Of a stretch of 52,389 nt of DNA, positions 3,235 through 51,107 are shown piece after piece. The position numbers and the translations under genes are program-made. Numbering within the stretch: the stretch's first letter is position 1; each line of letters starts with the position of its first letter. The DNA is from a virus. Its lineage: Duplodnaviria > Caudoviricetes. Below the pieces are notes generated by a model. The model saw only the letters and a program-made list of their open reading frames with translations, was not told where the DNA came from and searched no databases. Where the stretch lies: positions 1 to 52,389 of IMG/VR virus record IMGVR_UViG_3300037439_000020. One strand, written 5' to 3'.

Positions 3235-4426
3235 CGAAGCTTGGCAACGCGAAGCTTTCCCAAAGCTAGCTGAAATTATTTGGCAAAGGAAAGTAATCCC
3301 ATACTTGCAAGAGAAAGGCTTTATGACCGAAGTAACAGACAACGTTCCGGTTCCAGAATCGACTACAAAGAAAATAACAAAGCGAGCCAGGAAGAAGACA
3401 GCCGCCGCGAAACCTAGCGCCGCTGCCGAACTACTGGCGGCGTTAAAGTTCATCATGCCGGCACAACGCAACGCCGGCACGAACTACCAAACCCATTGCA
3501 TTATCAACGGTCATTGGTGCGTCGCCTTTGACGAAGTGTTGACAATTGGTTGCAAGGTTCAAGAGGATATTAGCGCTTGCCCACACTCTAGCAGCCTAGC
3601 TGCCGCGTTAGCGAAGTGTGGAGAAACCATCGCTATAACCCAGCTAAGCGAAGCGATTTTAAACATCAAGTCAGAGCGCTTTAAAGCGAATATTAATTGC
3701 GTTCGCTTTGAAGACATGCCGCTAAGCGCGCCCGATCCGCCGATAATGGCCGCGAATGACGAACTGAAGACCGCGCTAGGTGCGTTCGCTTGGCTATTGC
3801 TGGATAACGTAAACCCGGCGTTCGCCGCGTTTAAAGGCGCTGTTTTTCTTCAGTCGCAAACGTTAGTAGCGACGAATGGAATGTTAATGTTGGAGCATTG
3901 GCACGGTTTAGAAATCCCGGCTAGCGTTTTGATTCCGAAAGCGTCAGCCGTTGCCGTTTCAAAATGTGACAAGCAATTGGTTGCAATCGGCGGTTCTGAG
4001 AATTCAATAACGTTTCATTTCGCCGACGAAAGCTTTATAAAAACGCAACTGTTCAAGGACCATTACCCGAACTATACCGCCATATTTGATGCAACTGCAG
4101 ACAACCCGGCACCGCTGCCGCTTGGCTTCTTCGAAGCGATTGACGCTGTTAAGGATTTCGCCGACAAAGGCTTTGTTCATTTGAAAGGCGATAGGATACA
4201 ATCAAGCCGTCATGACGGTATTGGAGCTAGCTTTGATATTGACGGGGTTCCTGACGGCTTCAGCTTTAACCCGGAGTTCTTGAAGGGCGTTCAGCCGCAT
4301 TTTCACAATACAACGTTCGCTAATCATCGCGTGAAATTTCAAAATGGTAAGGTACGCGGCATCGTCATGGGCGGCAATGAACCGACCGAGCCGGTTCCGT
4401 ATAAACCTGCAATTGGCGGCGGCTAA
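3218..4426 (+). CDS. DNA polymerase sliding clamp (beta-clamp-like)
   Basis: Clamp-like patterns LVATNG, LIPK, FIKTQLFKDHYPNY and FSFNPEFL; lies directly upstream of the polymerase. Start uncertain. Confidence 0.75.
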   Translation: MAEHADEAWQREAFPKLAEIIWQRKVIPYLQEKGFMTEVTDNVPVPESTTKKITKRARKKTAAAKPSAAAELLAALKFIMPAQRNAGTNYQTHCIINGHWCVAFDEVLTIGCKVQEDISACPHSSSLAAALAKCGETIAITQLSEAILNIKSERFKANINCVRFEDMPLSAPDPPIMAANDELKTALGAFAWLLLDNVNPAFAAFKGAVFLQSQTLVATNGMLMLEHWHGLEIPASVLIPKASAVAVSKCDKQLVAIGGSENSITFHFADESFIKTQLFKDHYPNYTAIFDATADNPAPLPLGFFEAIDAVKDFADKGFVHLKGDRIQSSRHDGIGASFDIDGVPDGFSFNPEFLKGVQPHFHNTTFANHRVKFQNGKVRGIVMGGNEPTEPVPYKPAIGGG

Positions 4427-7366: not shown

Positions 7367-9645
7367 TATAAAACTGCCGAAGGTTGAAAAATAAACAATT
7401 GAACGCTGACAAAACGAAATAAGCTAGAACTATCCAAATTAAAAGCCAACCAATCGCCAGCGTTAACCGTCTTGTTCCAACCGGTTAAAGTAATATCTTG
7501 ATAGCTAACGCCAGCTGTAATCGTCGGTTTGGCACTAGCGGTAATACTGTCAGCGACTTGCGGCGGAAATACAGCATTCTTCCAAACGTCAACAACGCAA
7601 CTACCGTTAGTACCAATAGGCCCGGTTGCAATAACAACTTTAGCGATTTGTCCAGCAGTTGGACAATGAATATAAACAACATTTGTGGGAATTACGATAG
7701 CAGCGCCACCGCGAACCCAAGTTGCTCCGCGCATATCCACAACAGCCGCTTCAAGTGCCTTGTAACGCACTCCAGCCGCATCAGTTGAATCTGCAATTAA
7801 AGCTTCGCCATTAGAGCCAACCGGCTTGCGAACGTAATCAGTACCGTTAAAAACGATAATATCGCCTTTGTCCGTGAGTATGTCTGCAATCCAAGGTGGC
7901 GGTAATTGAATACCGTCAACATATTCATACCATTCATTCGCCGTTTCATCATAAATGAAAGTATGATTTGGAATCGGTGTAAACGTCCATGAATCGGTAT
8001 CGGGATCATAATCAGCAAATTCACCATCATGGCCTGCCCAATCACCAGTTGAACCCGGCGCTGGTATGTATGTGGAATTAGGATCAGGATCAACCGGTGG
8101 CGTTGTCGAGTTACTATTAACAATTCCAGGACCGCTTAAATTATCGCTGCCGTCATCTGGTGGCGGTGGATCACTAGGCGGTGTCAACGGTGGTTGAGTA
8201 ATAAGCCAACTTTCGTTGCTTTCCGCCCATACATCCGCAACAGCTTCAACCTTCATCATCGTCGTTTCAATATCGCCTTTACCGACTTTCAAAGCGCGAT
8301 AAACACGTGGCAACAAATGATGTACGGGCTCCTGATATTTGAAAACACCAGCGTACCCCATAGGTGAAGTACCGCGAAACACGTCAATTTTAATTTTCGA
8401 CATTGGCGATACACGCGTAAAAATTTCACGCGTCAAATGCGCTCTAGCTGTAGCAGCATCAGTCAAGCCAGGACGATCCAGCGTCATTGGTATTTCGGCA
8501 TTTTGCGACATTTGGTTTCCCAAATCATGCGCCGTAAAACTCGTCTGCTCAAAAGTTCGAATATCAGTATATTTCAACGTAATCTGATTAATACGTTCGC
8601 CATTGCCAACAGTTTCATACTCAATTAATTTTGAATTAGATGGAGTATAAAGCGGTATTGTCTCTACATCATAATCGCCGCGTAAAAGGACAAGTTGCCA
8701 TTTGCCAATGGTTTCATTCCAGCGTAAACCACCGCCCATGTGTTCACATACGCGATCAATAAACGCCTTGATTTCCATTTCATGCTCCCATTTAAAGGAG
8801 CCGCCTAAGCCTTCATCATAACATTTATCAGCGCACAAACGAAACGAAGCATCGTCGATTTGATCGCGACTACCACCCATTCCCCATTTAGAATTAGTCA
8901 AGGATTCGTAAACGATATGAGCAAAATTCATATCGTTATAAGGTTCATAGTCGTCAGGATCACGCGCTATGTTAATTTTTTCTGGATACCATATTTCACC
9001 ATCCCAACCTTCAGTTGTTCGTTCAAAATCGATAGTAATTTGCCGTAACTGTTCGCTGTTACCAATCCAAATGCCGCCAGGAGAACCGTTTTTATAAACA
9101 TCAACTGTAACAACACCTCTATATGCATTGTTATCCGTTATACCGTTCTTATATTGAGGCGCTGGCATTTGATCATCCCAACCGGCCCGAATATGCAAAA
9201 TACCACTAGCTCCACCGCCGCGCGTTTCACCACCAAAGAAATTTCCATCATCAAAGGGAATTTCATAAGAACTTGGTCTTAATAGAGTCAAATCAAACAA
9301 TGCAGCCAAAGACGGATTTATTTGTTTTTCACCAAACAACGGATTGCCGGCTTTATTAATCGGACCATGACAAAACGCCATTTGAAATTTAAGATAATAC
9401 TTATGACCAACTGTAGTTTTAGAAAAACCAGAACGCTTTCGAATACGACGAGTTTCCATATCACCAAACCAAGTTACATTTGGTGACTTCATTCTAACCC
9501 GACCAAATATAACCGGTATAGCCCGACCGTCTTCAGCAACCGGCACTTCAAGTTCATCTAATCCAGCCGCACGAGCATCAGGCGGTTTTTTTTGAGCCGC
9601 TATCGCAATAATCGTTAAAATCAAATATATAAAAAATTCAACCAT
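7366..9645 (-). CDS. tail tip / central tail hub protein with DUF2793-like domain
   Basis: IPVIFG, TVGHKY..AFCHGPI, AYRG and NFAHIVYE tail-hub patterns; Pro-rich linker followed by TTPP..STGDWAGHDGE..W.F. Confidence 0.75.
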   Translation of the reverse strand: MVEFFIYLILTIIAIAAQKKPPDARAAGLDELEVPVAEDGRAIPVIFGRVRMKSPNVTWFGDMETRRIRKRSGFSKTTVGHKYYLKFQMAFCHGPINKAGNPLFGEKQINPSLAALFDLTLLRPSSYEIPFDDGNFFGGETRGGGASGILHIRAGWDDQMPAPQYKNGITDNNAYRGVVTVDVYKNGSPGGIWIGNSEQLRQITIDFERTTEGWDGEIWYPEKINIARDPDDYEPYNDMNFAHIVYESLTNSKWGMGGSRDQIDDASFRLCADKCYDEGLGGSFKWEHEMEIKAFIDRVCEHMGGGLRWNETIGKWQLVLLRGDYDVETIPLYTPSNSKLIEYETVGNGERINQITLKYTDIRTFEQTSFTAHDLGNQMSQNAEIPMTLDRPGLTDAATARAHLTREIFTRVSPMSKIKIDVFRGTSPMGYAGVFKYQEPVHHLLPRVYRALKVGKGDIETTMMKVEAVADVWAESNESWLITQPPLTPPSDPPPPDDGSDNLSGPGIVNSNSTTPPVDPDPNSTYIPAPGSTGDWAGHDGEFADYDPDTDSWTFTPIPNHTFIYDETANEWYEYVDGIQLPPPWIADILTDKGDIIVFNGTDYVRKPVGSNGEALIADSTDAAGVRYKALEAAVVDMRGATWVRGGAAIVIPTNVVYIHCPTAGQIAKVVIATGPIGTNGSCVVDVWKNAVFPPQVADSITASAKPTITAGVSYQDITLTGWNKTVNAGDWLAFNLDSSSLFRFVSVQLFIFQPSAVL

Positions 9646-10463: not shown

Positions 10464-12136
10464 TCAAATACACTCACAAGATTGACGGAAACAATTGCTT
10501 TACCGGTAATTGGATGACCTATGTTAGCTTTGTCACCATCAATTCGCATTAACATTAAAAAATCGATCTTATAAACTTGATTAACGAAAATAACTGAATC
10601 AGAAACAGCAGCGTTCAGCGATAAAACCTCATCTTGACCGTCCGCATTGCTGTCGATAATTCGTCTGAAAAACTGACTACCGTCCTTCAAGCTAATTCGA
10701 ATATCGGCCAATGGACGACGTTGGCGAATAAACGTCGAATAGCTAACATTCGCTATTCTAAGCGTTGTAGCGCCAGCAGCTATATCCTGTAATAGCATCA
10801 AGTCATGCATTCCACTCGGAACCCAAAATGATTTTTGACCAGTAAGGTAATGGAGCAATCGACGAATACGCCAAATATCTACCATAGTGTTCAAACTCCA
10901 AACTTTACTTGTTCTAATTTTGCTACGATCAGTCTGTGAAGTCTGATAAATCGAACCGCTTTTTGTATCGATCAACGAAATTGCTCTTGACAGATCATAA
11001 GGCTTAAGATTGCTTCCACCCATGAAATTAACATCAGTCAATACAACTCGACTGTCATAGAACGTTGCACCGGTTGTATCAGCAAGGTTGACATTAGTTA
11101 GGCTCAAAAACGTTGCCATTGTTCTGGTTGCGTTGACAGGGTACTTAGAACGCGCAATGCTATTAGATGCATAACAGTCGCGAATAGGCATAATCAACGA
11201 ACGTTCAAAATTCTGCGAAACTGGCGACTGAACTTCAATAGCATTCGTATTCACTTCTGTTATAGCTTGCGCTTCAAAGTTGTTTCTATCTTGATATATA
11301 AACAGCAAACCACCAACGCGAAAATCTCCATAAGCTGTATTCACTGGAACAATAAAGCTACCTTCCTCCACAGTAGATGACGCATAGCGTGCTTCAAACC
11401 ATACTGGAACGCCAAACACGCGCGGCTGCCAATCAAACAACAAGCTTTGCATATCAGCACTTGCAATATCATCGCTAAGAATTTCATATGTTAAACGTTG
11501 ACGCGGATTGCGAAGCCGAGCGCGACGTTCACTTTCATCATCACTAATGTCAACAACCGTTGAAAACTCCAAATTTTCGTCAATATCACTTTGTGGGATA
11601 TATGGAAACAATACTAAACGAGAACCGAAAACATGCAATTCAATTGTTATAAAAGTAAAATCAAATTCATAGGTAACATCGACATTTGGCGGACCTGATG
11701 CCGGAATAGACAATTCAAAAAACAACTGTTCAAATGGAGCAAATAGAATCGGTGTATCATCTTCACCGGGTTCTAAGTTAAGGTCTTCAGTACCTATTAT
11801 CTGTTCAATAGTTTCAAGCGTAGTTGGCTCAAAAAACGCATTGAAAACCCAAAAGCTAACTTGCTGATCACCTAAAACATTCCCAAGATTAAGTTCAGGA
11901 TATTGAAAATGAATTTTATTGTAGAAATGCAAAAAGCCATACAGCTCCACTGCATAGCCAACATGGGTCACCGGATTTTCATTAACCGGTTGTGTTGATG
12001 TTTGTATTCCAAACATAGGCAACGTTAATAAGTATGCACTTCGTTGCGGTACAAGGTCTTTTGATTCAAAATCGTCTAAGCCAAACGATGACGTTAGCAA
12101 GACGCTAGGAACCGCATTACCTGGAAACGTTGCCAT
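10460..12136 (-). CDS. virion structural (distal tail) protein
   Basis: Position downstream of the tape measure gene; E.R..LR.PR and FWVP patterns. Confidence 0.7.
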   Translation of the reverse strand: MATFPGNAVPSVLLTSSFGLDDFESKDLVPQRSAYLLTLPMFGIQTSTQPVNENPVTHVGYAVELYGFLHFYNKIHFQYPELNLGNVLGDQQVSFWVFNAFFEPTTLETIEQIIGTEDLNLEPGEDDTPILFAPFEQLFFELSIPASGPPNVDVTYEFDFTFITIELHVFGSRLVLFPYIPQSDIDENLEFSTVVDISDDESERRARLRNPRQRLTYEILSDDIASADMQSLLFDWQPRVFGVPVWFEARYASSTVEEGSFIVPVNTAYGDFRVGGLLFIYQDRNNFEAQAITEVNTNAIEVQSPVSQNFERSLIMPIRDCYASNSIARSKYPVNATRTMATFLSLTNVNLADTTGATFYDSRVVLTDVNFMGGSNLKPYDLSRAISLIDTKSGSIYQTSQTDRSKIRTSKVWSLNTMVDIWRIRRLLHYLTGQKSFWVPSGMHDLMLLQDIAAGATTLRIANVSYSTFIRQRRPLADIRISLKDGSQFFRRIIDSNADGQDEVLSLNAAVSDSVIFVNQVYKIDFLMLMRIDGDKANIGHPITGKAIVSVNLVSVFE

Positions 12137-13039: not shown

Positions 13040-13951
13040 TTAGTCCAGCGAAACGCCGCAATAATTCCAACGATTAGTTTTAGCGCCATCTTGAATCATC
13101 AAATGGTCAATGCTGTCAATTTGAATGATGTCTTCCGACGCTGCCGAAAATCCAGGAATAGCGTAAGCGCCGTCAAGTTCACCTAGCAAATCATTCGTCG
13201 GCGAGTCAGCGAGTAATTCCAACGCAAAACGTGGATAGCTGCCGTCAAGGTTGTTTCGCATTTCACGCCAACGAGTAACGTCAACACTATTAAAAACGTT
13301 GCCGTTATATGGCCAAACGTAACAACCACTGGTTGACATTGTACTTTCACTGCTACTTTGACTAAAATTGCCGCCACTTTGCCAATTGCCGCTTGGTTGT
13401 AATATTTGAACGGTTGGGCCAGGATCAAAAAAACTTCTAATTCGATTATCGCTACTAGCAAGTGACCAACGATTATTGGCATCAGTCACCATGCCTAAAT
13501 AATAGGGTTGTGGATAGTCGCTAGGCGCGGAGCGCGGCAAAAACTTTCCCAAGTAACTAGAAAAGTATGATGTTGAAATTTTGGTAATAATAATGATGCG
13601 CTGACCGTTCGCTTTGAACCAATACGGTATAGCACTATCCCATACAGGCTGATAACGAACTAGTGACGTTCCAGGTTGACCCAAGTCACCAAATGTCGGT
13701 TCGTACATTTTATACATCCAACCCGTTAACGCATAAGCGTCATTCGGATTATCAGCAACATACCCGAAACCAAAATGAATTTCTTCCGTACCTGACAGGC
13801 CAGGAGCACGGAGCAAGACGCGATTGTTGACGCCGTCATAACGCAATTCGGTCCACCCTGCTCCACCACCGCCCGTCGAAGTCGTTAGAAACGTTCGAAG
13901 AAGCGCAAACAAATTAGCATGATCGGTTGCGGTGCCAGTTGCCATTACCAT
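13040..13951 (-). CDS. virion structural protein
   Basis: GTATDH N-terminus, YLGKFLP and LGELDG patterns; first gene after the tape measure. Confidence 0.7.
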   Translation of the reverse strand: MVMATGTATDHANLFALLRTFLTTSTGGGGAGWTELRYDGVNNRVLLRAPGLSGTEEIHFGFGYVADNPNDAYALTGWMYKMYEPTFGDLGQPGTSLVRYQPVWDSAIPYWFKANGQRIIIITKISTSYFSSYLGKFLPRSAPSDYPQPYYLGMVTDANNRWSLASSDNRIRSFFDPGPTVQILQPSGNWQSGGNFSQSSSESTMSTSGCYVWPYNGNVFNSVDVTRWREMRNNLDGSYPRFALELLADSPTNDLLGELDGAYAIPGFSAASEDIIQIDSIDHLMIQDGAKTNRWNYCGVSLD

Positions 13952-42398: not shown

Positions 42399-43892
42399 AT
42401 GACACCTTCGAAGTATCAACAAGCGATTTATGACACCGTCGTTAACACCGCCTGTAACCTGATCATCGTCGCCGTTGCAGGTAGCGGCAAATCAACGACG
42501 TTAAAGCACGTCTATAGCCTCCTAAAAGGCTCACGCGTCATGCTGGCGTTCAACGCCGCCATTGCCAAGGAACTGCGCGACGCTGGCATGCAAGCCAAGA
42601 CGTTTCATTCACTGTGCCTGCAAGCCGTCTTGAACTTCAAGAAGCTTCGTAGCGCTGACGACGTAACCGGCAACAAGCTGTCACGCATTATAAAAGCGAC
42701 GTTCAGCAGTGACGATGCCCACAATTACGGCGCGTTTTGCACCAAGCTGGTTGGTCTGGCGCGCAACAACGGCGTCGGCATTGATGGCCTAATGCCTGAC
42801 ACCTTCGAAGCGTGGGAACGTTTGGTTCAGTTGCATGACATCGACCTTGACGACGCTAACGGCTGCACGATTGAGCGCGGCATTGAATTAGCGCATTGGT
42901 TGCTGGAAGAATCAAATAACTCACCCATGATCGATTGGGATGACGTTCTGTACATGGCAGTCAAGTTCAACCTGCCGTTGTCAAAGTTCGCTAACGTCAT
43001 GGTTGACGAAGCGCAAGATACCAACGCCATTCAACGTGAAATCATTCGTCGCATCTTGGCCCGTCAATGGAATGATTCTACAGTTGTTCTTGGCCGGTTG
43101 ATCGCAGTGGGTGACCCGGCGCAAGCCATCTACGCGTTTCGTGGCGCTGATAGTAATGCGCTCAACCTGATAGCATCTGAATTCAAGTGTGTTGAAATGC
43201 CGCTGTCTATCAGCTACCGCTGTGCCCCTGTCGTCGTCGAATATGCTCGTCAATGGGTCAACCATATCGAAGCCAACCCCGACCGCCATGACATTGGTGG
43301 CGTTGTGAACCTGGACACCGATTGGTTGCTTGACGACTTCGAAGAAACTGACTTGGTTATCTGCCGCACTACCCGCCCGCTGATTTCCCTGGCAATGCGA
43401 CGCCTTCAGGCGCGTCTTCCGGTTCGCATCATGGGCCGCGACATCGGTGAAGGCTTAATTAAATTCATCAAATCAATGGACGCAAACAGCATTGACGACT
43501 TAGAAACGAAATTGTTGGCGTACAAAGACCGCGAAGTAACCAAGGCGCAGAAGGCTGGCGAAGACAGCAAGATTGAAGCAATTAACGATAAGGTTGGCGC
43601 GATACATGCGCTTATGGGCGCGCTCACCGAAACTAACCGAACTGTTGACGCCTTGTTTGACGTTCTAAAAGAACTATTTAACGAGAATAAGAAAGCTGTG
43701 ACCCTGGCAACCATTCACAAGTCGAAAGGATTGGAAGCCCGAACGGTGTATTGGCTGAATCGAAGTCAATGCCCGTCACGTTGGGCGCGTCAGGAATGGC
43801 AGCAGAAGCAGGAGCAAAATTTGATGTACGTCGCAACTACGCGTGCTAAGGTATCGCTCCGGATGATCGAAGAGACTGCTCGCGCGGTCTAA
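42399..43892 (+). CDS. UvrD/Rep-like SF1 DNA helicase
   Basis: AVAGSGKS, VDEAQD, VGDPAQAIYAFRGA, SYRC, TIHKSKGLE and YVATTRAK. Confidence 0.92.
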   Translation: MTPSKYQQAIYDTVVNTACNLIIVAVAGSGKSTTLKHVYSLLKGSRVMLAFNAAIAKELRDAGMQAKTFHSLCLQAVLNFKKLRSADDVTGNKLSRIIKATFSSDDAHNYGAFCTKLVGLARNNGVGIDGLMPDTFEAWERLVQLHDIDLDDANGCTIERGIELAHWLLEESNNSPMIDWDDVLYMAVKFNLPLSKFANVMVDEAQDTNAIQREIIRRILARQWNDSTVVLGRLIAVGDPAQAIYAFRGADSNALNLIASEFKCVEMPLSISYRCAPVVVEYARQWVNHIEANPDRHDIGGVVNLDTDWLLDDFEETDLVICRTTRPLISLAMRRLQARLPVRIMGRDIGEGLIKFIKSMDANSIDDLETKLLAYKDREVTKAQKAGEDSKIEAINDKVGAIHALMGALTETNRTVDALFDVLKELFNENKKAVTLATIHKSKGLEARTVYWLNRSQCPSRWARQEWQQKQEQNLMYVATTRAKVSLRMIEETARAV

Positions 43893-43991: not shown

Positions 43992-44101
43992 GAGTCCCGC
44001 CCCGCTGTTGGTCTGTAGGACAATCCGGCTTGCCGGATTACGACGGACTAGACGCAATGCTGCCGTCATCTACGCGTCGGCCAACAGCGGGGAAATGGGC
44101 A
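43992..44101 (+). ncRNA. structured repeat element, copy 1 (branched hairpin)
   Basis: Arms GAGTCCCGCCCCGCTGT and CAGCGGGGAAATGGGCA, identical in copy 2; 12-bp perfect stem; inner hairpin AATCCGG/CCGGATT. Confidence 0.55.
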
Positions 44102-44133
44102 TCATAACGTCACCAACGTCAGGAGTCACACCA

Positions 44134-44313
44134 ATGAGCGATACGGTTTACACGGTTGAAAAAGAAGACGGCACAAAGCTTTACCTTGCCGCCGATTCGG
44201 AAGACGCCGCCTTTCAGAAGCTTCAGCGAAACGGCAATACCGACCCACGCGAAGCGCTGAAGTTTACCCCCGGCAAGCATGGTGACGTTCCCGAAGGTGC
44301 TGACGTTCTGTAA
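44134..44313 (+). CDS. 59-aa hypothetical protein (MSDTVYTVEKEDG...)
   Basis: AGGAG RBS at 44121; the longer ORF-track start runs through the hairpin. Confidence 0.7.
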   Translation: MSDTVYTVEKEDGTKLYLAADSEDAAFQKLQRNGNTDPREALKFTPGKHGDVPEGADVL

Positions 44314-44332
44314 GCGTTGGTTCAAGGAACAT

Positions 44333-44364
44333 AGCCTGTCGCTATCACTGGCGACAGGCTTTTT
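44333..44364 (+). terminator. intrinsic terminator between convergent genes
   Basis: AGCCTGTCGC/GCGACAGGCT stem followed by a T-run. Confidence 0.8.
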
Positions 44365-44369
44365 AATCT

Positions 44370-46721
44370 TCACAAATCAAAATAACGCGGATTCGCCATA
44401 ACATAAGAAACGGCACTTGTCTGGTATTTCATACCTAGCGTCGGCTTATCAATTTCCCGGAGCGCGCCAGCGTCAACCAAATTCTTGAACGTTCGCTTAA
44501 TCGCATTCGTCGCGCCGCTCTTATCTTCCTTAAAGTCCTTAAGGTTACTACATTTACGCTGAATCGTGCTAAGCGGAATCACCTTGTCACTGTGCATTGC
44601 TTGCGTACCGGTACTAATCTTTTCCCATTTATCCCAAGAGTCAAGAATATAAGTACGAATCCATTTGATAACAGTTCGTAACTGCCTATCTTCATCACTA
44701 CCTTTGATACTATTACCTATTGAACCCTCTTCGAACTTTACATGCAACCGTTCAATATCATCAATCACAATTTCAATTGCCCAACGTGCCGACGCTTCGT
44801 CAATTACCGGATCAAAAGCATGGCAGCCAATTGCGACCAATGCCGCTAACTTCATCGCCTTAATGTGGGCACGGTTCCATAACTGACGTGTTAATTCGCT
44901 TTGACTGCTGTTGATTCGTTCATCACAAAACTTATCGAAGCCTTTAAACAATTGTTCAGTTGCGACGTCGAATCTAACGTTAATAGCTTTATGTTGACTA
45001 TTCAACATAAGACTGTGAGCGCATAACGCGCCAAGACGATCAATCAAATAGAACGATGGGTTGACAATACGCTGTTCATTTAGCGGTGGACGTATACCAC
45101 TGTATTCAATTGTCAAGAAACGCGGAAGCAATCCTTCTTCAATCATGTCTTCTGACAACGCTTCGTAAAAACGCGACGGCGTTGATTCACCAATCAAACT
45201 AAACGCTGGTGATTGTATAGTGTTGGTATTCTTTTCTTTATCACTATAGATACGCGGTCGAAGTTGATCGCCTTCGCCGCTCTTATTAAACAAGTCAAGA
45301 AACAAACCTCGTAAGCTAATTAAATGTGCCGGTGCAAATGGCATAGACATGGTTTTAAGCGTCAAACCAAATTCGCCCATAATCGAAACAAAACTAGGCA
45401 TTTGACGCGATAAATACTTTATCAATGCTTGTGATGATGCAATTTCAGCTGGCCCAATAAAATCAACTGATGCGGGTACCGTCTTACCAACAGCTTTCAT
45501 TAGCTTTTCAATACCTCCTGCAATCGCTTCTTTGCCGGTACCGGTTGATGCTAACAATAAAACATACTGGTTAAGTCCGGTGCCGCTAACGTTGTATGAC
45601 CTACCCACAATACCGCACATGAGCCCGATGGCCGCAACCAAGGCGATTTCAGGTACCGGGCGCGGAGCCGCTGAATAAACGAACTGCGCGATTTCACCGA
45701 GTAAGCCAGGAGGCACCGAATATGCCTTTGACGTTTCAGCTTGAGTGGTCATCGTTTCGCTTTTTTGGCTTTTCGTTTCACCTTTTTTGCGTTTCGTTTC
45801 AGCAACAACCTCGGCAATTTGATTCTGTATGCTATCAAAATTGATCGGCATTGGCGTTCTATCGAACGCTCTATTAGTTATATGGTCTAAATACTTAACG
45901 CCTTTAATCGTTGTTTGTTTGTTACGCTCACCAAGTGCGGAGCAACGAAAGATTCGTTTAATTTGCTCTTTGTTCTTGCTGTAGAACGCCAGCATATCAA
46001 CTAAGGCAAAGTCAGCTTCAGATTGTGACGGGTAATATCCTTGCCATTTACCACCATATAACGCTTTAAACTTATCGCCGTTAGCAGCATTTAACGCACG
46101 TTGTATAATTTCGGTGTCGGTGTCAACCTCTTCAAGCGTGCCAGCATAGTACGCTGCAAGGTTAGCTGTCTCTTTGCTCATTTCGAGCCAAAGCGATTGC
46201 AAAGCGTCTTCGCAAGGTTGAATCGGTGCCGGCCGGTATACGTCACCGGTGACCGTCATATAGCGTTCGTTGCTATAGACTTCGACCGAGTCACGACGCC
46301 GGCCGCAAGGAACGTGGCCTTTAACGATAATGTGTAAACCTTTGCCGCTAGGCGACCGTTCCGCGTAGCTTGGAAACGTTTTGTATATACGTTGCTGACT
46401 TTCAACAATACGTTCTGGTTTATTATGCTTCGGCGAACCGTCAGGATTTAGCGCGTACGGGTCATCTAGGTCAATGAACGTAAACGGGTCATTATTACTA
46501 AGAACGAAACCAACACCAGAATAGCCGCCGCCATTAAGCGATGCTTCAACGGCCAAATCAAAATTCGACCAATGACGGGAATCAGTAACGCTAGCTTTAT
46601 GACCGCTGACGCTATAAGGAACCTTGGTAGGTTTGCCATTTTCATCCTGTTCGTTTTTCCAAACAATCCATTGGTCGAACTGCCGGAGTTCAACCGGTAC
46701 GTTATTATAGTTATTCGCCAT
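44370..46721 (-). CDS. primase-polymerase/helicase (NrS-1-like AEP plus DUF3987-like ATPase)
   Basis: FIDLDD, ERSPSGKGLHII, EVY..RYMTVTG, SQSEADFAL; C-terminal ASTGTGKE P-loop. Confidence 0.88.
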   Translation of the reverse strand: MANNYNNVPVELRQFDQWIVWKNEQDENGKPTKVPYSVSGHKASVTDSRHWSNFDLAVEASLNGGGYSGVGFVLSNNDPFTFIDLDDPYALNPDGSPKHNKPERIVESQQRIYKTFPSYAERSPSGKGLHIIVKGHVPCGRRRDSVEVYSNERYMTVTGDVYRPAPIQPCEDALQSLWLEMSKETANLAAYYAGTLEEVDTDTEIIQRALNAANGDKFKALYGGKWQGYYPSQSEADFALVDMLAFYSKNKEQIKRIFRCSALGERNKQTTIKGVKYLDHITNRAFDRTPMPINFDSIQNQIAEVVAETKRKKGETKSQKSETMTTQAETSKAYSVPPGLLGEIAQFVYSAAPRPVPEIALVAAIGLMCGIVGRSYNVSGTGLNQYVLLLASTGTGKEAIAGGIEKLMKAVGKTVPASVDFIGPAEIASSQALIKYLSRQMPSFVSIMGEFGLTLKTMSMPFAPAHLISLRGLFLDLFNKSGEGDQLRPRIYSDKEKNTNTIQSPAFSLIGESTPSRFYEALSEDMIEEGLLPRFLTIEYSGIRPPLNEQRIVNPSFYLIDRLGALCAHSLMLNSQHKAINVRFDVATEQLFKGFDKFCDERINSSQSELTRQLWNRAHIKAMKLAALVAIGCHAFDPVIDEASARWAIEIVIDDIERLHVKFEEGSIGNSIKGSDEDRQLRTVIKWIRTYILDSWDKWEKISTGTQAMHSDKVIPLSTIQRKCSNLKDFKEDKSGATNAIKRTFKNLVDAGALREIDKPTLGMKYQTSAVSYVMANPRYFDL

Positions 46722-46725
46722 GTCG

Positions 46726-46929
46726 TCAACCCGTCATGACAAAATCAATGACGGCTTTGACGCGAGAATAACCCGGATTCGGTATTTCACCAGCTAACAG
46801 CTTGTTCAACCAATCAACACTAACGTCAGTCTTTTCGGCAATATGAATCAGCTCCATTCGACGGGGTCTATTTCGAATAGCTTCCCTGATAGACTCTAGG
46901 CTAGGAACTGTGATAGGAGTAGTATTCAT
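46726..46929 (-). CDS. small XRE/Cro-like HTH regulator
   Basis: IAEKTDVSVDWLNKLLAGEIPNPGYSRV. Confidence 0.8.
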   Translation of the reverse strand: MNTTPITVPSLESIREAIRNRPRRMELIHIAEKTDVSVDWLNKLLAGEIPNPGYSRVKAVIDFVMTG

Positions 46930-46978
46930 TACTGTTTTTAAAGGAAAAATTGGCTAGTCCATTACACGGCAGCGCGGC

Positions 46979-47008
46979 AAGGTAGCACCGCCGCCGCTTA
47001 CGGTTCAA
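46979..47008 (-). promoter_or_regulatory. candidate promoter for the HTH-primase unit
   Basis: TTGAAC-N18-TACCTT with an extended -10 TGc. Confidence 0.4.
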
Positions 47009-47085
47009 CTGTAATCTTTCCCTTGACACCGAGAGACGATAGGGGCAGTGTGTCGCGCCCCGTACCCACAATAACAGGCGGACCA

Positions 47086-48132
47086 ATGAACCTTATTCAG
47101 TACCAGACCGAGTGCCAGAGCACCAAAAGCAATGAATTCTTCGGTGACCGCGTCACAAAGCTGTTCTTTAAGAATGCTATTCTTGAAGCGGTCGAAGCGC
47201 TGACCCGACTGGACGCAATTAAGAAGTCAATGTTCTACGGCAAAGCTTCAACGCGTTACCCGGTCAACGGCGGCTTTGAAGGCGAAGAAGATGGCAAGGG
47301 TAACGCTGTTGAAACATGCGCTTCGGTCAACGTGATTCTTGAAGATAGCGAACAAGGCGAACTAGCCGGTAACAAAGGCGTTGACGTTATTCACGGCATT
47401 CTAGGCAAAGCGACCGAAGCAAGCGAGCTGCTTGAAGCGCTCTATACAGCTGCATACAACGGTCAGCCTTTGGACCGTGTCAACCTTATCGAAGAAGTCG
47501 GCGACGGCTTTTGGTATGACGGCATTACGCTTGAAGCCGTTGGCAGCAACTTTCATGACGCCGCCGCTCGCAACAATGCCAAGCTGAAGAAGCGCTTCCC
47601 GAATAAGTTCACAACCGAAAACGCGGTTACCCGCGACCTGACCGGCGAACGAGAAATGCTCGAAATCCCGGCGTTCTTGCGTAAGGAAGATGAACCGATT
47701 GCCGAATCAGACGTGGAAATGCTGAAGCGCTTAGGGACTGACGGCAAATTGTGGGCACATGAATTAGAAAATCGTCTTCAGCGATTCGATGCAATTTTAT
47801 CGACCGATAGAGTCGATTACTTGCACGCTTGGTTCGCCAATGCCATTGAAGCCGGCGCAATGCGCGAAACGTCGAAGCTGGCGAAGAAGCTTAGCGACTT
47901 GGACAACTGCGTTGCAATTCAAAGCGGACCCGGCACCGGCGACACTGACCATTACATGCGCGGGATGGCAAACGGTCTGATTCTGGCGCAAAGCATCATG
48001 AAGGGTACAGAATGCAAGTATCTTGACGCCAATTGTGTGAAAGACGCCAATAAGGTAGCGTCAACCGACACCCCGCTTGAAGTCGGCGACGAAGCTGAAT
48101 CCGAACGAATCCGCGAAGAGAATGCCGGTTAA
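47086..48132 (+). CDS. MazG-like nucleotide pyrophosphohydrolase with C-terminal extension
   Basis: HGILGKATEASELLE...NLIEEVGDGFWY...NNAKLKKRFP acidic-helix motif; ATG 47086. Confidence 0.8.
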   Translation: MNLIQYQTECQSTKSNEFFGDRVTKLFFKNAILEAVEALTRLDAIKKSMFYGKASTRYPVNGGFEGEEDGKGNAVETCASVNVILEDSEQGELAGNKGVDVIHGILGKATEASELLEALYTAAYNGQPLDRVNLIEEVGDGFWYDGITLEAVGSNFHDAAARNNAKLKKRFPNKFTTENAVTRDLTGEREMLEIPAFLRKEDEPIAESDVEMLKRLGTDGKLWAHELENRLQRFDAILSTDRVDYLHAWFANAIEAGAMRETSKLAKKLSDLDNCVAIQSGPGTGDTDHYMRGMANGLILAQSIMKGTECKYLDANCVKDANKVASTDTPLEVGDEAESERIREENAG

Positions 48133-48217
48133 CGTTTAAGCCGCATATAAGCTTCCCCCAAAGTAAAAGGCGGCGTTGGTGGAGTCATCCTGCGAATTGA
48201 CAGAAACCAACTGAACG

Positions 48218-48247
48218 TTGACAAGCATGGCGGCGTTAGCATAAGCT
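48218..48247 (+). promoter_or_regulatory. candidate sigma70 promoter overlapping a terminator-like hairpin
   Basis: TTGACA-N18-TAAGCT followed by AGCGCC; overlaps GGCGGCGTTAGC/GCTAGCGCCGTC-TTTT. Confidence 0.5.
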
Positions 48248-48278
48248 AGCGCCGTCTTTTAATCGAACAGGAGTCAAT

Positions 48279-48845
48279 ATGCCGAAGCATGAAAGCGCCG
48301 CATTACCAATGATGCCGGCGGCAGAATATGTAAACGACAAAGAGCAAGCCGAAATTGCCCGTATTCGTGGCTTGCTGGAATGGGGCCAAAAGCTGAATGA
48401 CACCGACAAGGAAAGCTATTTCTATTTCTTGTTGCGTAATCAGCAACGCGTTAAAGCGGTTCTTGACCGAGTTAAAGCGGATGAAATGGCGTTTCGCGTT
48501 CTAGCAATTAATGTCGGCTTTGATACAAGCCGAACTGGAACGCAACGGGTTGAATTGGAAGGCGGCTATCAGGCTAAAGGCGTTATCAAATATCATTACG
48601 GCTTTGTCAAGACGCCCGAAGGCAAACTTGACAAGCGCGCCATTGACGCGGCTTTGACCGCCATCGAAGAACGTTCACCGGCCGGCGCGTATATCGCCGA
48701 ACATTTGGTGAAATGGACGCCCGACCTTAGCTTGACTGAATACAAGAAATTGCCAGCCGAAGACAAAGCAATTATTGATGAAGTCATTATAACGACGGAC
48801 GCCGCGCCAGTTCTCGAAATCGAAGCGCCAAAAGGCAGCAACTAA
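48279..48845 (+). CDS. hypothetical protein
   Basis: GAACAGGAG RBS, 188 aa. Confidence 0.75.
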   Translation: MPKHESAALPMMPAAEYVNDKEQAEIARIRGLLEWGQKLNDTDKESYFYFLLRNQQRVKAVLDRVKADEMAFRVLAINVGFDTSRTGTQRVELEGGYQAKGVIKYHYGFVKTPEGKLDKRAIDAALTAIEERSPAGAYIAEHLVKWTPDLSLTEYKKLPAEDKAIIDEVIITTDAAPVLEIEAPKGSN

Positions 48846-48847
48846 TT

Positions 48848-48917
48848 GAGTCCCGCCCCGCTGTCTGCGTAGGTCCGGTCTAAAATCGGGTAGCCAGCAG
48901 CAGCGGGGAAATGGGCA
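48848..48917 (+). ncRNA. structured repeat element, copy 2
   Basis: Same 17-nt arms as 43992..44101, with a different but still pairing interior. Confidence 0.55.
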
Positions 48918-48986: not shown

Positions 48987-49035
48987 GGTTGACGGCATCA
49001 GGCATCGTCTATGACTTTCCCTGATGCCGTCAACC
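48987..49035. repeat. perfect 16-bp inverted repeat
   Basis: GGTTGACGGCATCAGG ... CCTGATGCCGTCAACC. Confidence 0.9.
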
Positions 49036-49059
49036 CGTTTTAACAACATAGGTTAGACC

Positions 49060-49731
49060 ATGAAACAGGAAATTTATAAGTCGTCAACGCTAGGCGAAAT
49101 CCCGCTATCATTTACCGGCCGGCATTTGCTGCAAAATTTGCGCGAAGTGATTACAAACGGCATAGCGGCTTCAGCCAATGGCCAACCGATCAAATGGGAC
49201 GATATTTCAATTGCTCGCGGCAAGCTGGCGCAGTATATAAGCAAGCTTGAACAGCGTTCTGAACGTCCGCGCGCTTACGACTCCCACAATGAAGACGAAC
49301 CGCGCGTTCATGTTCATCACGTTCAGTCATTCGAAGAAGTTTTAAAAATCATGGCAGATTACGAAGCCGGCAACATGCCGCTTGAATCGAACGGCCAGGA
49401 AATAAAAAGCACACTTGAAGAAACTAACCCAAAGACGCAAGTACATGAAGCGCCGAACGGTTCGACGCTGGTATTGCCGGAAATCCCGGAAAACTACGTG
49501 TTGCGTATGGTTGGCGGCATGCTAGTAATTCAGCCGCTATCGGTCGAAGAATTGCAAGCCAAAGCCGACTGCGATTTTAATAAGCGCAACAACGAAAAGT
49601 TTTATCACTTGTTAAACGAATACCGTGACGCTTTGATGGCGGTACAAATACCCGGCGCAAGGCGTGATTGGCAAGAACACGTTGACAAAGCCCGTATGGC
49701 AATCATTCAGGCTTACGAAAAACCGTTATGA
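49060..49731 (+). CDS. hypothetical protein
   Basis: 223 aa, ATGA-coupled to the ATPase. Confidence 0.75.
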   Translation: MKQEIYKSSTLGEIPLSFTGRHLLQNLREVITNGIAASANGQPIKWDDISIARGKLAQYISKLEQRSERPRAYDSHNEDEPRVHVHHVQSFEEVLKIMADYEAGNMPLESNGQEIKSTLEETNPKTQVHEAPNGSTLVLPEIPENYVLRMVGGMLVIQPLSVEELQAKADCDFNKRNNEKFYHLLNEYRDALMAVQIPGARRDWQEHVDKARMAIIQAYEKPL

Positions 49732-50405
49732 ATATCGGTCAACTTAAGCCGGCGTCGCAACTAGCGCAACGGTTTGGCGTCAAGTCGGTATGCTTCGGCG
49801 GACCCGGCACCGGTAAAACACCGCTGACAAACACCGCGCCGCGTCCTGTATTATGCGTGACCGAGCCGGGTATGTTAACCATGCGAAATAGTAATATTCC
49901 GACTTGGGAAGCATACACGCCGGATCGGGTTGACGAATTCTTTGAATGGCTTCAACGGTCGAACGAAACCCGAAACTTTGACACCGTTTGCATTGACTCG
50001 GTATCGCAAATGGCGGAACTGTTTCTGTCGCGGGAATTGGCGCGTTGGAAGGACGGGCGTAAAGCCTATGGTGAAATGGCGCGGCATGTAATGGAGCTAT
50101 TGAACGGCTTGTATTACATGCCGCAAAAACATACTTACTTGATTGCCAAAGAAGGCATGATTGAACTTGGAGGCGTGACAAAGCGAAAACCATATTTCCC
50201 CGGTCAGGATTTGAACATTAAAGTTCCGCATATGTACGACGAAGTTTGGCATATCGGGTTAGCGAACATACCCGGTCAGCTGAAGCCAGTTGTTGCAATC
50301 CGAACTGTTGAAACGTTTGATACATTTGCGCGGGATAGAAGCGGGCGTTTGAATGAATACGAATACCCGAATCTTGCCGCGCTCTTTGAAAAGGCAATGT
50401 CGTAA
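49728..50405 (+). CDS. AAA ATPase, Sak4-like recombinase
   Basis: GGPGTGKT Walker A, VCIDS Walker B; adjacent to the SSB and exonuclease genes. Confidence 0.8.
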   Translation: MNIGQLKPASQLAQRFGVKSVCFGGPGTGKTPLTNTAPRPVLCVTEPGMLTMRNSNIPTWEAYTPDRVDEFFEWLQRSNETRNFDTVCIDSVSQMAELFLSRELARWKDGRKAYGEMARHVMELLNGLYYMPQKHTYLIAKEGMIELGGVTKRKPYFPGQDLNIKVPHMYDEVWHIGLANIPGQLKPVVAIRTVETFDTFARDRSGRLNEYEYPNLAALFEKAMS

Positions 50406-50414
50406 GAGGTTTAT

Positions 50415-51107
50415 ATGACTCAATTGATGCAACCATTTGACGCCAGCAAGGTTGACCCAACGCAAAGCGGCGGTCAAATGCCGGTTGGCAAACATCCCGT
50501 CGTTATTCGTGATTCTGAACTTAAGGCAACACAAGACAAAACAAGCGGCTATTTGCAACTAAATCTTGAAATTATTGACGGTCCATCAAAAGGTACAACC
50601 GGACCTTATCGGCTGAATCTGTACAACACCAACGAAACCGCTGTTCGCATCGCTCATCAGCAACTTTCAGCGATTTGTCACGCAATCGGTCAGTTACAAG
50701 AGTTTATTGACCCCGCTGTGCTATACAACCGGCCGTTCATTGTTGAAGTCGGTTTGCAGAAAGACCCCGACGCGGCGGCAAAGGGTTACACCGAAGTCAA
50801 AAAGGTATACGACATTAACGGCAATGAACCCGGCAAGGCTCCAGCCGGTGGTCAACCGGGCCCAAACCCCAACCAAGCCGGTAACGGTGGCGGTCAATGG
50901 GGCGCACAGCAAGGCGCGCAGCAAGCGCCGCCAGCAGGGGGCGGGGGTTGGGGCGGTGGACAATCGAGCGCGCCGCCACCGGGCCAAGGTAATGCGCCAG
51001 CTGGCAACCAACCGGCTTGGGGCGGTGGCCAGCAAGGCAATCAGCCAGCTTGGGGCGGCGGTGGCCAGCAAGGCGGTCAGCAAAACCCGCCTTGGGGTAA
51101 AAAGTAA
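50415..51107 (+). CDS. DUF669-like ssDNA-binding protein
   Basis: PVGKHPVVI...YLQLNLEIIDG...RLNL core with a Gly/Gln/Pro/Trp low-complexity tail. Confidence 0.75.
   Translation: MTQLMQPFDASKVDPTQSGGQMPVGKHPVVIRDSELKATQDKTSGYLQLNLEIIDGPSKGTTGPYRLNLYNTNETAVRIAHQQLSAICHAIGQLQEFIDPAVLYNRPFIVEVGLQKDPDAAAKGYTEVKKVYDINGNEPGKAPAGGQPGPNPNQAGNGGGQWGAQQGAQQAPPAGGGGWGGGQSSAPPPGQGNAPAGNQPAWGGGQQGNQPAWGGGGQQGGQQNPPWGKK

Follow-up and report, generated by a model that had tools for sequence, protein, structure and literature searches.

A rare intergenic hairpin with invariant arms and a fast-evolving top in replication and recombination operons of phages

Hairpins located between phage genes are usually dismissed as terminators, but the element described here is not one. 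Among the described systems that come closest, REP/BIME sequences represent host elements with hundreds of copies and a dedicated transposase-like partner, and put antiterminators consist of two stem-loops. For PeSL motifs, a role as exchange points between unrelated sequences is described in a section of PMC4122927. Furthermore, RNase III sites require, according to passages of PMC1540722, about two helical turns without inhibitory G-C pairs in the proximal and distal boxes, and internal loops or bulges can restrict the enzyme to a single cut, leaving a protective 3' hairpin. The element in question is a hairpin occurring twice in IMG/VR record IMGVR_UViG_3300037439_000020, a complete virus record of 52,389 bases, referred to in its entirety as the window.

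A preliminary description of this sequence had reported two copies of a structured element with exact 17-nt ends, and both were recovered at positions 43992-44101 (copy 1, 110 nt) and 48848-48917 (copy 2, 70 nt, beginning 2 nt past the stop codon of a DUF7173 gene). The 5' 17-mer, GAGTCCCGCCCCGCTGT, was located at 43992-44008 and 48848-48864, and the 3' 17-mer, CAGCGGGGAAATGGGCA, at 44085-44101 and 48901-48917, all on the plus strand. Each of the two 17-mers matched the window exactly twice, and no further site was found at up to three mismatches, a threshold at which 0.05 (5' 17-mer) and 0.12 (3' 17-mer) matches are expected by chance. RNA folding reproduced the proposed base, consisting of GUCC/GGGC, a CG/AAAU internal loop, and the helix CCCCGCUG/CAGCGGGG. 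In both copies, a 2-by-4 internal loop thus separates the basal helix of 4 bp from a G+C helix of 8 bp that runs into the interior, where the stem is extended by UUGGUC/GGCCAA in copy 1 and by CUGC/GCAG in copy 2. The three-way junction of copy 1 was likewise obtained, and the view that the constant part forms the base of a long hairpin is supported. The fold energies were -53.4 kcal/mol for copy 1 (z -4.4) and -36.4 kcal/mol for copy 2 (z -3.95), with none of 200 shuffles being as stable in either case. The element also folds significantly under DNA parameters (z -3.0 to -4.7), which, however, shift the register of the base: CCCG/TGGG is then stacked directly onto the 8-bp helix, leaving a bulge of 3 nt (AAA). 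The predicted pairing of the lowest helix therefore depends on whether RNA or DNA parameters are used. The interiors had been counted as 76 and 36 nt; measured between the strands of the 8-bp helix, the interior of copy 1 is 77 nt long. The absence of a U-tail was also confirmed, since no T-run follows either window copy.

Further members were searched for by exact and gapped pattern scans of viral contigs and metagenome contigs, the matches being sorted by script, and by means of a covariance model (R1) built from the first eight copies, which scores copy 1 with 62.5 bits and copy 2 with 66.7 bits. In total, 12 distinct instances were obtained: the two in the window, seven in other viral contigs (one each in the complete records G001, G002, G003, G004, and G005 and in contigs L025 and L248), and one in each of three metagenome contigs (L199, identical to L203, L201, and L204). 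Thus, two copies are present in the window and a single copy in each of the five other complete phage records. The other pattern matches were G+C-rich chance matches, mostly located in apparent coding regions. Of the 80 loci surrounding related primase-polymerase genes (1.27 Mb in total) to which R1 was applied, G001 itself and L248 were the only ones to score; in the latter, an orthologue of copy 2 likewise follows a DUF7173 homologue. Among 185,579 species genomes, the two-arm pattern matched at a single site, which lies within a coding frame and represents a chance match, and a blastn search of cultured phages with 11-base words, the sensitivity of which is borderline for 17-mers, returned only three 23-nt chance matches at E 9. 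In agreement with the preliminary description, no known RNA family was recognized: a search of the whole window against Rfam 15 gave no match at gathering scores, and at E ≤ 10 only chance-level matches appeared, the best for the elements alone being CRISPR-DR54 (12.4 bits versus 39; E 5.6) and RF_site1 (12.9 versus 40; E 3.7). Neither arm, written as DNA or as RNA, was found in a full-text literature search, and the sequencing runs listed as containing the window stretch comprise one DNA run and no RNA run. The two stretches are true copies of a rare, previously undescribed structured hairpin.

The members span at least two phage lineages with almost no genes in common. Based on a BLASTP comparison of crude open reading frame (ORF) sets, in which the window accounts for 77 ORFs, the window shares 29 ORFs with G001 and 15 with G005, one each with G002 and G004, and none with G003. 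The only families common to all six complete genomes (E 1e-3) are a primase-polymerase/helicase and an SF2 helicase, and a UvrD-like helicase is encoded in five of the six. The element-bearing phages are roughly 51-66 kb in size, and their primase-polymerase most closely resembles the enzyme of cultured siphoviruses such as DLP_1; the window enzyme shares 52-53% identity with its counterparts in cultured siphophages of Pseudomonas, Stenotrophomonas, and Xanthomonas.

In the alignment of all 12 sequences, positions 2-16 of the 5' arm (15 bases) are invariant, and on the 3' side the same applies to seven bases of the helix strand, the first A of the loop, and the GGGC of the basal helix. A changed 3' arm occurs in L248 alone. 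Out of 16 base pairs tested, 12 arm pairs never vary, not even by compensatory substitution, and the basal helix contains the same U-G pair in all 12 members. Covariation sets in just inside the arms, at pair 17-93 (UA 7, CG 4, UG 1) and pair 18-92 (UA 6, CG 2, UG 2, AU 1). Standard pairs fill 95.7% of the pair cells compared to 39-54% in slid controls, and the covariation score was reached by none of 500 shuffles.

The preliminary description had regarded the interiors as variable cargo, that is, as different RNA heads presented on a common scaffold. This interpretation was not supported by the comparison of the 12 interiors, whose lengths are 77, 37, 42, 46, 36, 38, 36, 38, 52, 49, 43, and 42 nt. 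The best interior pairs, cross-lineage pairs included, are 0.64-0.68 identical, whereas shuffled interiors reached a maximum of 0.62; the mean identity is 0.548 versus 0.507 for shuffles. A recurring layout was read by eye, consisting of the stem extension, a G.UR..CC stretch, a short CC/GG hairpin, and a CGGG(A/U)AGC-like stretch. GTAGG and TCCGG, which had been noted as retained motifs, belong to this layout and are present in both window copies, but in none of the ten other members. RNAalifold, applied to a MAFFT alignment of the interiors, predicted nothing above the stem extension and did not recover the layout, the claim for which rests on the reading of the sequences together with the identity test. 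On this evidence, the interiors appear to be weakly homologous, fast-diverging hairpin tops, not unrelated cargo.

The same pattern was found within a single lineage. The element is orthologous in G002, G003, and G004, where the upstream flanks are 0.67-0.80 identical and the interiors only 0.50-0.59, which is near random, as compared to 1.00 for the 5' arm and 0.88-0.94 for the 3' arm. Since the arms are fixed while the interiors drift to near-random values within one lineage, the arms are under strong selection and the top is nearly free; such drift between fixed arms points to a fast-evolving hairpin top rather than a swapped-in payload.

Each of the 12 instances is in sense orientation relative to the genes on both sides. 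Nine of them start 0-6 nt after a stop codon, in nine a purine-rich ribosome-binding site with an ATG follows within 10-32 nt, and in ten the plus strand folds more stably than the minus strand. The element is most likely co-transcribed rather than a separate gene, because the nine instances starting 0-6 nt past a stop codon leave no room for a promoter of their own. Discrete small RNAs, decoys, and self-cleavage, as considered in the preliminary description, found no support. No T-run, and hence no U-tract of an intrinsic terminator, is present behind any of the 12 instances; the terminator-like sites of the window itself (44333-44360, 48229-48256, and 48987-49041) carry T-runs, unlike the element.

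Every instance with nameable neighbors is embedded in a module of exonuclease, annealase, single-stranded DNA-binding protein (SSB), and replication genes. Within the window, copy 1 is located behind a UvrD-like helicase gene and copy 2 behind the DUF7173 gene, ahead of genes for a 223-aa ORF, Sak4, and a DUF669 SSB. In G001 and L025, the element was found between the Sak4 and DUF669 SSB genes, in G005 between the DUF669 SSB and Cas4-domain exonuclease genes, in G002, G003, and G004 behind a gp2.5-like SSB gene, and in L201 behind a canonical SSB gene. It heads an operon encoding an exonuclease and a gp2.5-like protein in L204, and in L199/L203 the adjoining genes belong to no known family, with a primase/helicase gene approximately 1.8 kb upstream. 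An SSB gene adjoins seven of the 12 instances (four of eight independent contexts), and three unrelated families are involved, namely gp2.5-like, canonical OB-fold, and DUF669 proteins. Given about 70 intergenic positions per genome, the probability of such adjacency by chance can be roughly estimated as below 1 in 10,000.

Most economically, though tentatively, the element may be read as an intercistronic mRNA hairpin that works in cis, as a barrier to exonucleases or a signal for processing, and that is also a shared crossover point at module boundaries; this is the favored explanation, to which we assign somewhat less than an even chance. Structure, conservation pattern, position, and orientation were observed, whereas transcription, any cleavage, the stabilizing effect, and the role in recombination are deduced. 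Within the sense mRNA of recombination/replication operons, it would form an expandable hairpin of about 70 nt, with a constant base (4-bp helix, small purine-rich internal loop or bulge, and 8-bp G+C helix) and an irregular, fast-evolving stem above. Placed right behind the stop codon, the hairpin would block 3'-to-5' exonucleases and/or mark an endonuclease cut, thereby keeping the message upstream, which frequently encodes an SSB or annealing protein, at a level different from that of the downstream genes. The element would probably double as a short homology patch for module exchange, like the T4-type PeSL cassettes, because the same sequence occurs in unrelated phages at the edges of variable slots.

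The gene content behind the element does differ between related phages, as expected for a PeSL-like cassette. Directly behind it, a 79-aa ORF was found in G002, a 129-aa ORF in G004, and no ORF in G003, followed in each case by the same polymerase-exonuclease gene, and L248 possesses approximately 1.1 kb behind the element that is absent from the window. Locus L210 encodes an SSB 94% identical to that of G002, yet lacks both the element and the downstream gene of G002. Between G001 and L025, the 100 nt on either side of the element are 0.82 (upstream) and 1.00 (downstream) identical; overall, identity between the two is about 82-90% on the upstream side and rises to 99-100% over some 120 nt on the downstream side, with identical arms and unalignable tops. 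This downstream stretch of about 120 nt (G001, L063 ~11595-11715; L025, ~278-400) is non-coding, extends from the element to the SSB gene, is 99% identical as compared to about 88% for the flanking genes, and contains GTGACAGTACCG-like repeats in both orientations. It may represent an operator/promoter region or another RNA.

Several observations weigh against the intercistronic mRNA hairpin. An exonuclease barrier needs structure only, which leaves the 12 never-changing base pairs unexplained; the lack of any compensatory change points to a sequence-specific partner, i.e., a protein on the RNA or on the folded plus-strand DNA. With regard to RNase III, the position corresponds to that of a T7-type site, all 12 instances being located between co-directional genes on the sense strand. 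However, the basal helix comprises only 4 bp, and the upper helix of 8 bp, with an extension of about 2-7 bp, is nearly all G-C, while G-C pairs in the proximal box inhibit cleavage according to the corresponding section of PMC1540722. With helices this short and this rich in G-C pairs, a classical RNase III processing site is doubtful. The element is also rare among relatives, with only the two of 80 primase-polymerase loci mentioned above, one being G001 itself, and it is dispensable. Moreover, it precedes rather than follows the SSB gene in G001 and L025, and, should replication and transcription proceed in the same direction, a hairpin on the lagging-strand template would show the sense orientation as well.

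That last possibility, a single-stranded DNA hairpin signal, had already been raised in the preliminary description and is a live, if somewhat unlikely, alternative. Once unwound, the plus strand would fold, either in the lagging-strand template or in a resected intermediate of recombination, and its sequence would be read specifically by a protein of replication or recombination; it might, for instance, be a site of loading or priming by the primase-polymerase or a helicase. An invariant helix with 12 uncompensated pairs would be easier to reconcile with protein recognition of a B-form DNA stem than with most contacts between RNA and protein, and the fold is significant under DNA parameters, as given above, albeit with a T-G mismatch in the basal helix and a basal register unlike that of the RNA fold. 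The families common to the complete genomes, the primase-polymerase and the SF2 helicase, together with the UvrD-like helicase of five of them, would provide candidate readers, and the element always lies within a few kb of their genes. A stem-loop replication origin beside a primase-polymerase gene is cited for plasmid pRN1 in PMC8718748. However, the element is not the general origin of the related primase-polymerases, because only two of the 80 loci around their genes carry it. The recognition motifs of the NrS-1 enzyme, given as TTTGGTTA and GTGG/GTGA in the part of PMC8718748 dealing with them, are absent from both arms on both strands, which led to the rejection of primase recognition at these sites. 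Neither iterons nor an A+T-rich stretch was found beside the window copies, and the presence of two copies in the window is a further point against the DNA signal.

The invariant arms could, instead, reflect a partner outside the phage, as suggested by their letter-perfect conservation in phages with zero to three common protein families. In an improbable reading, a trans-acting or sponge RNA, the constant base would dock a conserved host protein or host defence protein after excision from the mRNA, serving as a hijack or counter-defence device. The sporadic, accessory distribution and the early-type operon location are consistent with such a device, RNA anti-CRISPRs are phage-encoded small repeat-mimic hairpins used in this manner according to passages of PMC10651486, and in L204 a promoter-like TTGACG, 17 nt, GATGAT is present just upstream of the element. 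On the other hand, a promoter of its own cannot fit in nine of the 12 instances, no terminator stands behind the element in most genomes, and no mimicked host sequence was found: no CRISPR array appeared among the matches listed (at least 120 loci in each of two scans), the best Rfam CRISPR match had an E-value of 5.6, no tRNA with such an end was detected, and rRNA complementarity was at chance level. A partner as conserved as host RNA polymerase could also explain the invariant arms if the element were a processive antitermination RNA of the put/nut kind, modifying the polymerase in cis for read-through of downstream terminators. Copy 1 lies 232 nt before the site at 44333-44360 and copy 2 lies 70 nt before that at 48987-49041, in each case on the same strand, and both are sense-strand copies in early-type operons. 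This explanation is nevertheless very improbable, given that a crude scan detected no strong terminator within 1.5 kb downstream of the ten other instances (weak hairpins of -9 to -17 kcal/mol only, unchecked against gene calls, and none in L248, G001, G005, and G003), that most genomes carry a single copy, that no boxA-like partner motif was found, and that the element is one long hairpin, unlike put. Finally, its presence in unrelated phages and absence from close relatives, its location at indel boundaries, and its occupation of whole intergenic spaces would fit a selfish or neutral palindromic insertion, i.e., a miniature mobile hairpin spreading between phage genomes without a function of its own. 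This is quite unlikely: only one or two copies occur per genome and the pattern scan found none in bacterial genomes, neither a target-site duplication nor end-reaching terminal inverted repeats are readable in the flanks, no transposase-like gene is associated, and the orientation is strictly sense in all 12 instances. Orthologous copies keep their arms while interior and flanks diverge, which argues for purifying selection. The probability left over after the intercistronic mRNA hairpin and these four alternatives was not assigned to any explanation.

Candidate identities that were rejected include a tRNA-end mimic, considered since the 5' arm resembles a T-loop, T-stem, and acceptor 3' strand. 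The 5' arm extended by TC (18-mer) matched 34 stretches in the 185,579 species genomes, none of which overlaps a tRNA gene (tRNAs occur elsewhere in six of the loci), and ARAGORN predicted no tRNA gene in the window. For a CRISPR-repeat mimic, scans with the 3' arm core and with the helix strands plus a short loop gave double matches, among the matches listed, only in the form of one palindrome read on both strands. Similar short hairpins in L369 and L378, of which one is intergenic in a bacterial assembly and the other sits at an ORF end, look like chance matches. Pairing with rRNA was dismissed, the longest runs complementary to Escherichia coli 16S, 23S, and 5S rRNA being 6-10 nt and no better than for shuffled arms. 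The interiors were also rejected as guides or copies of other DNA, as no match exceeding 13 nt exact (17 nt with one mismatch) was found in the six phage genomes and the other fetched loci, self excepted. Opposite-strand coding was discarded as well: although some copies are overlapped by ORFs, no shared reading frame is compatible with the interior lengths. A match to a terminator or REP family, which would have contradicted the preliminary description, was not found: the U-tract is missing in all 12 instances, and with one or two copies per phage genome and a single chance match in the species genomes, the high chromosomal copy number of REP/BIME is not observed. Integron attC sites were rejected, since the consensus core sites are absent from the arms on both strands and no recombinase is present among the annotated neighbors (part of the window genes are annotated). 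A miniature inverted-repeat transposable element does not fit either, because the perfect inverted repeat lies inside the element, whose outer 8-9 nt are only partly paired. The composite of terminator and early promoter typical of PeSLs was not recovered, as there is no U-tract and no shared promoter-like site upstream or inside, only that of L204. A group of contigs with the 5' arm only (L004, L006, L007, and others; 12 contigs and five variants among the matches listed) is probably unrelated, being located in a head-morphogenesis module and devoid of the 3' arm.

In the window, the UvrD-like helicase gene upstream of copy 1 spans positions 42399-43892 (+; Pfam UvrD-helicase, E 2e-19; PHROG 1967, E 1e-98), with its stop codon 99 nt before the element. 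An ORF of 59 aa without Pfam or PHROG match follows at 44134-44313 (+), having an AGGAG-type ribosome-binding site and an ATG 32 nt after copy 1, and a canonical intrinsic-terminator-like hairpin with TTTTT (44333-44360, +; terminator scan) closes the unit of helicase, copy 1, and this ORF. On the minus strand, a promoter-like site (GTGACT, 17 nt, TATGAT; 9/12 matches) at 44106-44129 abuts the 3' end of copy 1 and would start an antisense transcript across it; judged from their flanks, the site is not conserved at the other instances. The NrS-1-like primase-polymerase/helicase gene (44370-46721, -; PHROG 3022, E 1e-234; Pfam NrS1-1_pol-like_HBD) runs against all its neighbors and is bracketed by both element copies; the inverted orientation is also found in G001 and L248, each with a single copy. 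Further downstream follow a gene for a MazG-like pyrophosphatase (47023-48132, +; PHROG 229, E 2e-40), a terminator-like hairpin with TTTT between the MazG and DUF7173 genes (48229-48256, +; terminator scan), and the DUF7173 gene directly upstream of copy 2 (48279-48845, +; Pfam DUF7173, E 5e-32). Behind copy 2, at a distance of 70 nt, a 16-bp hairpin followed by CGTTTT (48987-49041, +) is terminator-like; it was read from the sequence, its 17-nt loop placing it outside the scan listing. The operon at 49060-51107 (+) comprises the 223-aa ORF, a Sak4-like annealase (49728-50405), and a DUF669-type SSB (50415-51107), as assigned by Pfam/PHROG searches.

The slot behind the DUF7173 gene is occupied differently in relatives. 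In eight related viral loci (L213, L214, L215, L226, L237, L279, L281, and L289) and in the cultured Stenotrophomonas phage DLP_1, a different G+C-rich, U-less hairpin with a constant GCCCACA loop sits just after the DUF7173 homologue, and further intergenic gaps of the DLP_1 module also hold strong hairpins. The motif TTGCCCACAA (up to one mismatch) occurs eight times in 16.3 kb of the replication module of DLP_1 (L488; 5584-5593 and seven other sites) as compared to 1.03 expected, a number reached by none of 200 shuffles. The window shows no enrichment of this motif. Where it follows DUF7173 genes, it makes up the loop of a hairpin, the stem of which covaries among phages. It could act as a loop motif in RNA, or else represent a priming motif or a repeated operator. 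Other hairpin families with constant arms did not emerge from a census of 10-mer inverted repeats in the 80 related loci and the six genomes, which revealed only coding repeats and ordinary terminators.

Two further observations concern proteins of the carrier phages. The SF2 helicase of G005 (L074, 5393-7165, +) ends in ...QDDDIPF, an SSB-type tail motif, and its homologue in the window (959-2593) ends in ...EVLGHEF, without such a tail. The gp2.5-like SSB genes of G002, G003, G004, and L210 end in ...GHMVRL at CTT TGA G (L066 of G002, ~13700-13800, -; L068 of G003, ~3840-3950, +; L072 of G004, ~8815-8930, -; L210, 630-730, +). Past this site, the +1 frame contains a conserved extension of 35-40 codons (..IVNGRLPG..MYPYDP.F.DD.IPF) with an acidic SSB-type tail, and both the site and the +1-frame protein sequence are kept in all four. 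This looks like a programmed +1 frameshift of the release-factor-2 kind, which would produce tailed and tail-less SSB.

Provided that the element sets mRNA fate, it would represent a compact portable part for tuning expression inside operons, and if it is a crossover point, it helps to explain replication-module shuffling. Binding of a host factor would point to an unknown phage-host interface. In a speculative extension, the invariant base, with 15 fixed bases on the 5' strand and 11 on the 3' strand, would be a docking module for a conserved cellular partner, within a portable hijack or counter-defence RNA of roughly 70 nt passed among unrelated phages beside SSB genes of three unrelated families; a host nuclease, RNA polymerase, or a defence protein sensing phage SSB/recombination functions are conceivable, equally speculative, partners. 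If this were true, a new class of phage regulatory or anti-defence RNA would be at hand, defined by its invariant helix and not by its loop. The covariance model can be used for virome annotation.

Compared with the known systems, the element recalls REP/BIME sequences in that these are G+C-rich imperfect palindromes behind stop codons that are able to protect upstream operon mRNA, but the pattern scan of the species genomes found the element in phages only, with one or two copies. Its constant inverted ends, two short helices with an unpaired spacer, variable center that may branch, and folding as a single strand are reminiscent of attC sites; however, the arms lack the 7-nt cores, no integrase-type gene is present among the annotated neighbors, and the surroundings are a fixed operon, not a cassette array. 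The GCCCACA-loop hairpin occupies the same slot after the DUF7173 stop codon and before a ribosome-binding site, is also G+C-rich without U-tract, and, in DLP_1, has CCCGCCCCG in common with the 5' arm. Yet its stems covary freely while the loop (TTGCCCACAA-like) is constant, and R1 does not detect it. The G-rich 3' strand of the element resembles type I-E repeats. RNA anti-CRISPRs, as presented in part of PMC10651486, are similarly short conserved hairpins in phage intergenic DNA, the sequence of which is possibly fixed by a host protein; the element differs by having 36-77 nt where the repeat has a tetraloop, and by a basal helix and internal loop without counterpart in the repeat. T7 R1.1-type RNase III hairpins are likewise internal-loop hairpins between genes of a phage polycistronic mRNA, as described in passages of PMC1540722, but these substrates have no positive sequence consensus, whereas the arms of the element are invariant, its lower helix is limited to 4 bp, and its main helix consists almost entirely of G-C pairs. 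PeSLs are composites of a terminator and an early promoter and are numerous in each genome, while the element has neither U-tract nor conserved promoter and is present in one or two copies, and exchange at the element is putative. What the element has in common with these T4-type motifs, on the basis of the relevant sections of PMC4122927 and PMC2839356, is that both are small conserved intergenic stem-loops at the edges of variable slots, common to otherwise unrelated sequences and proposed as exchange points.

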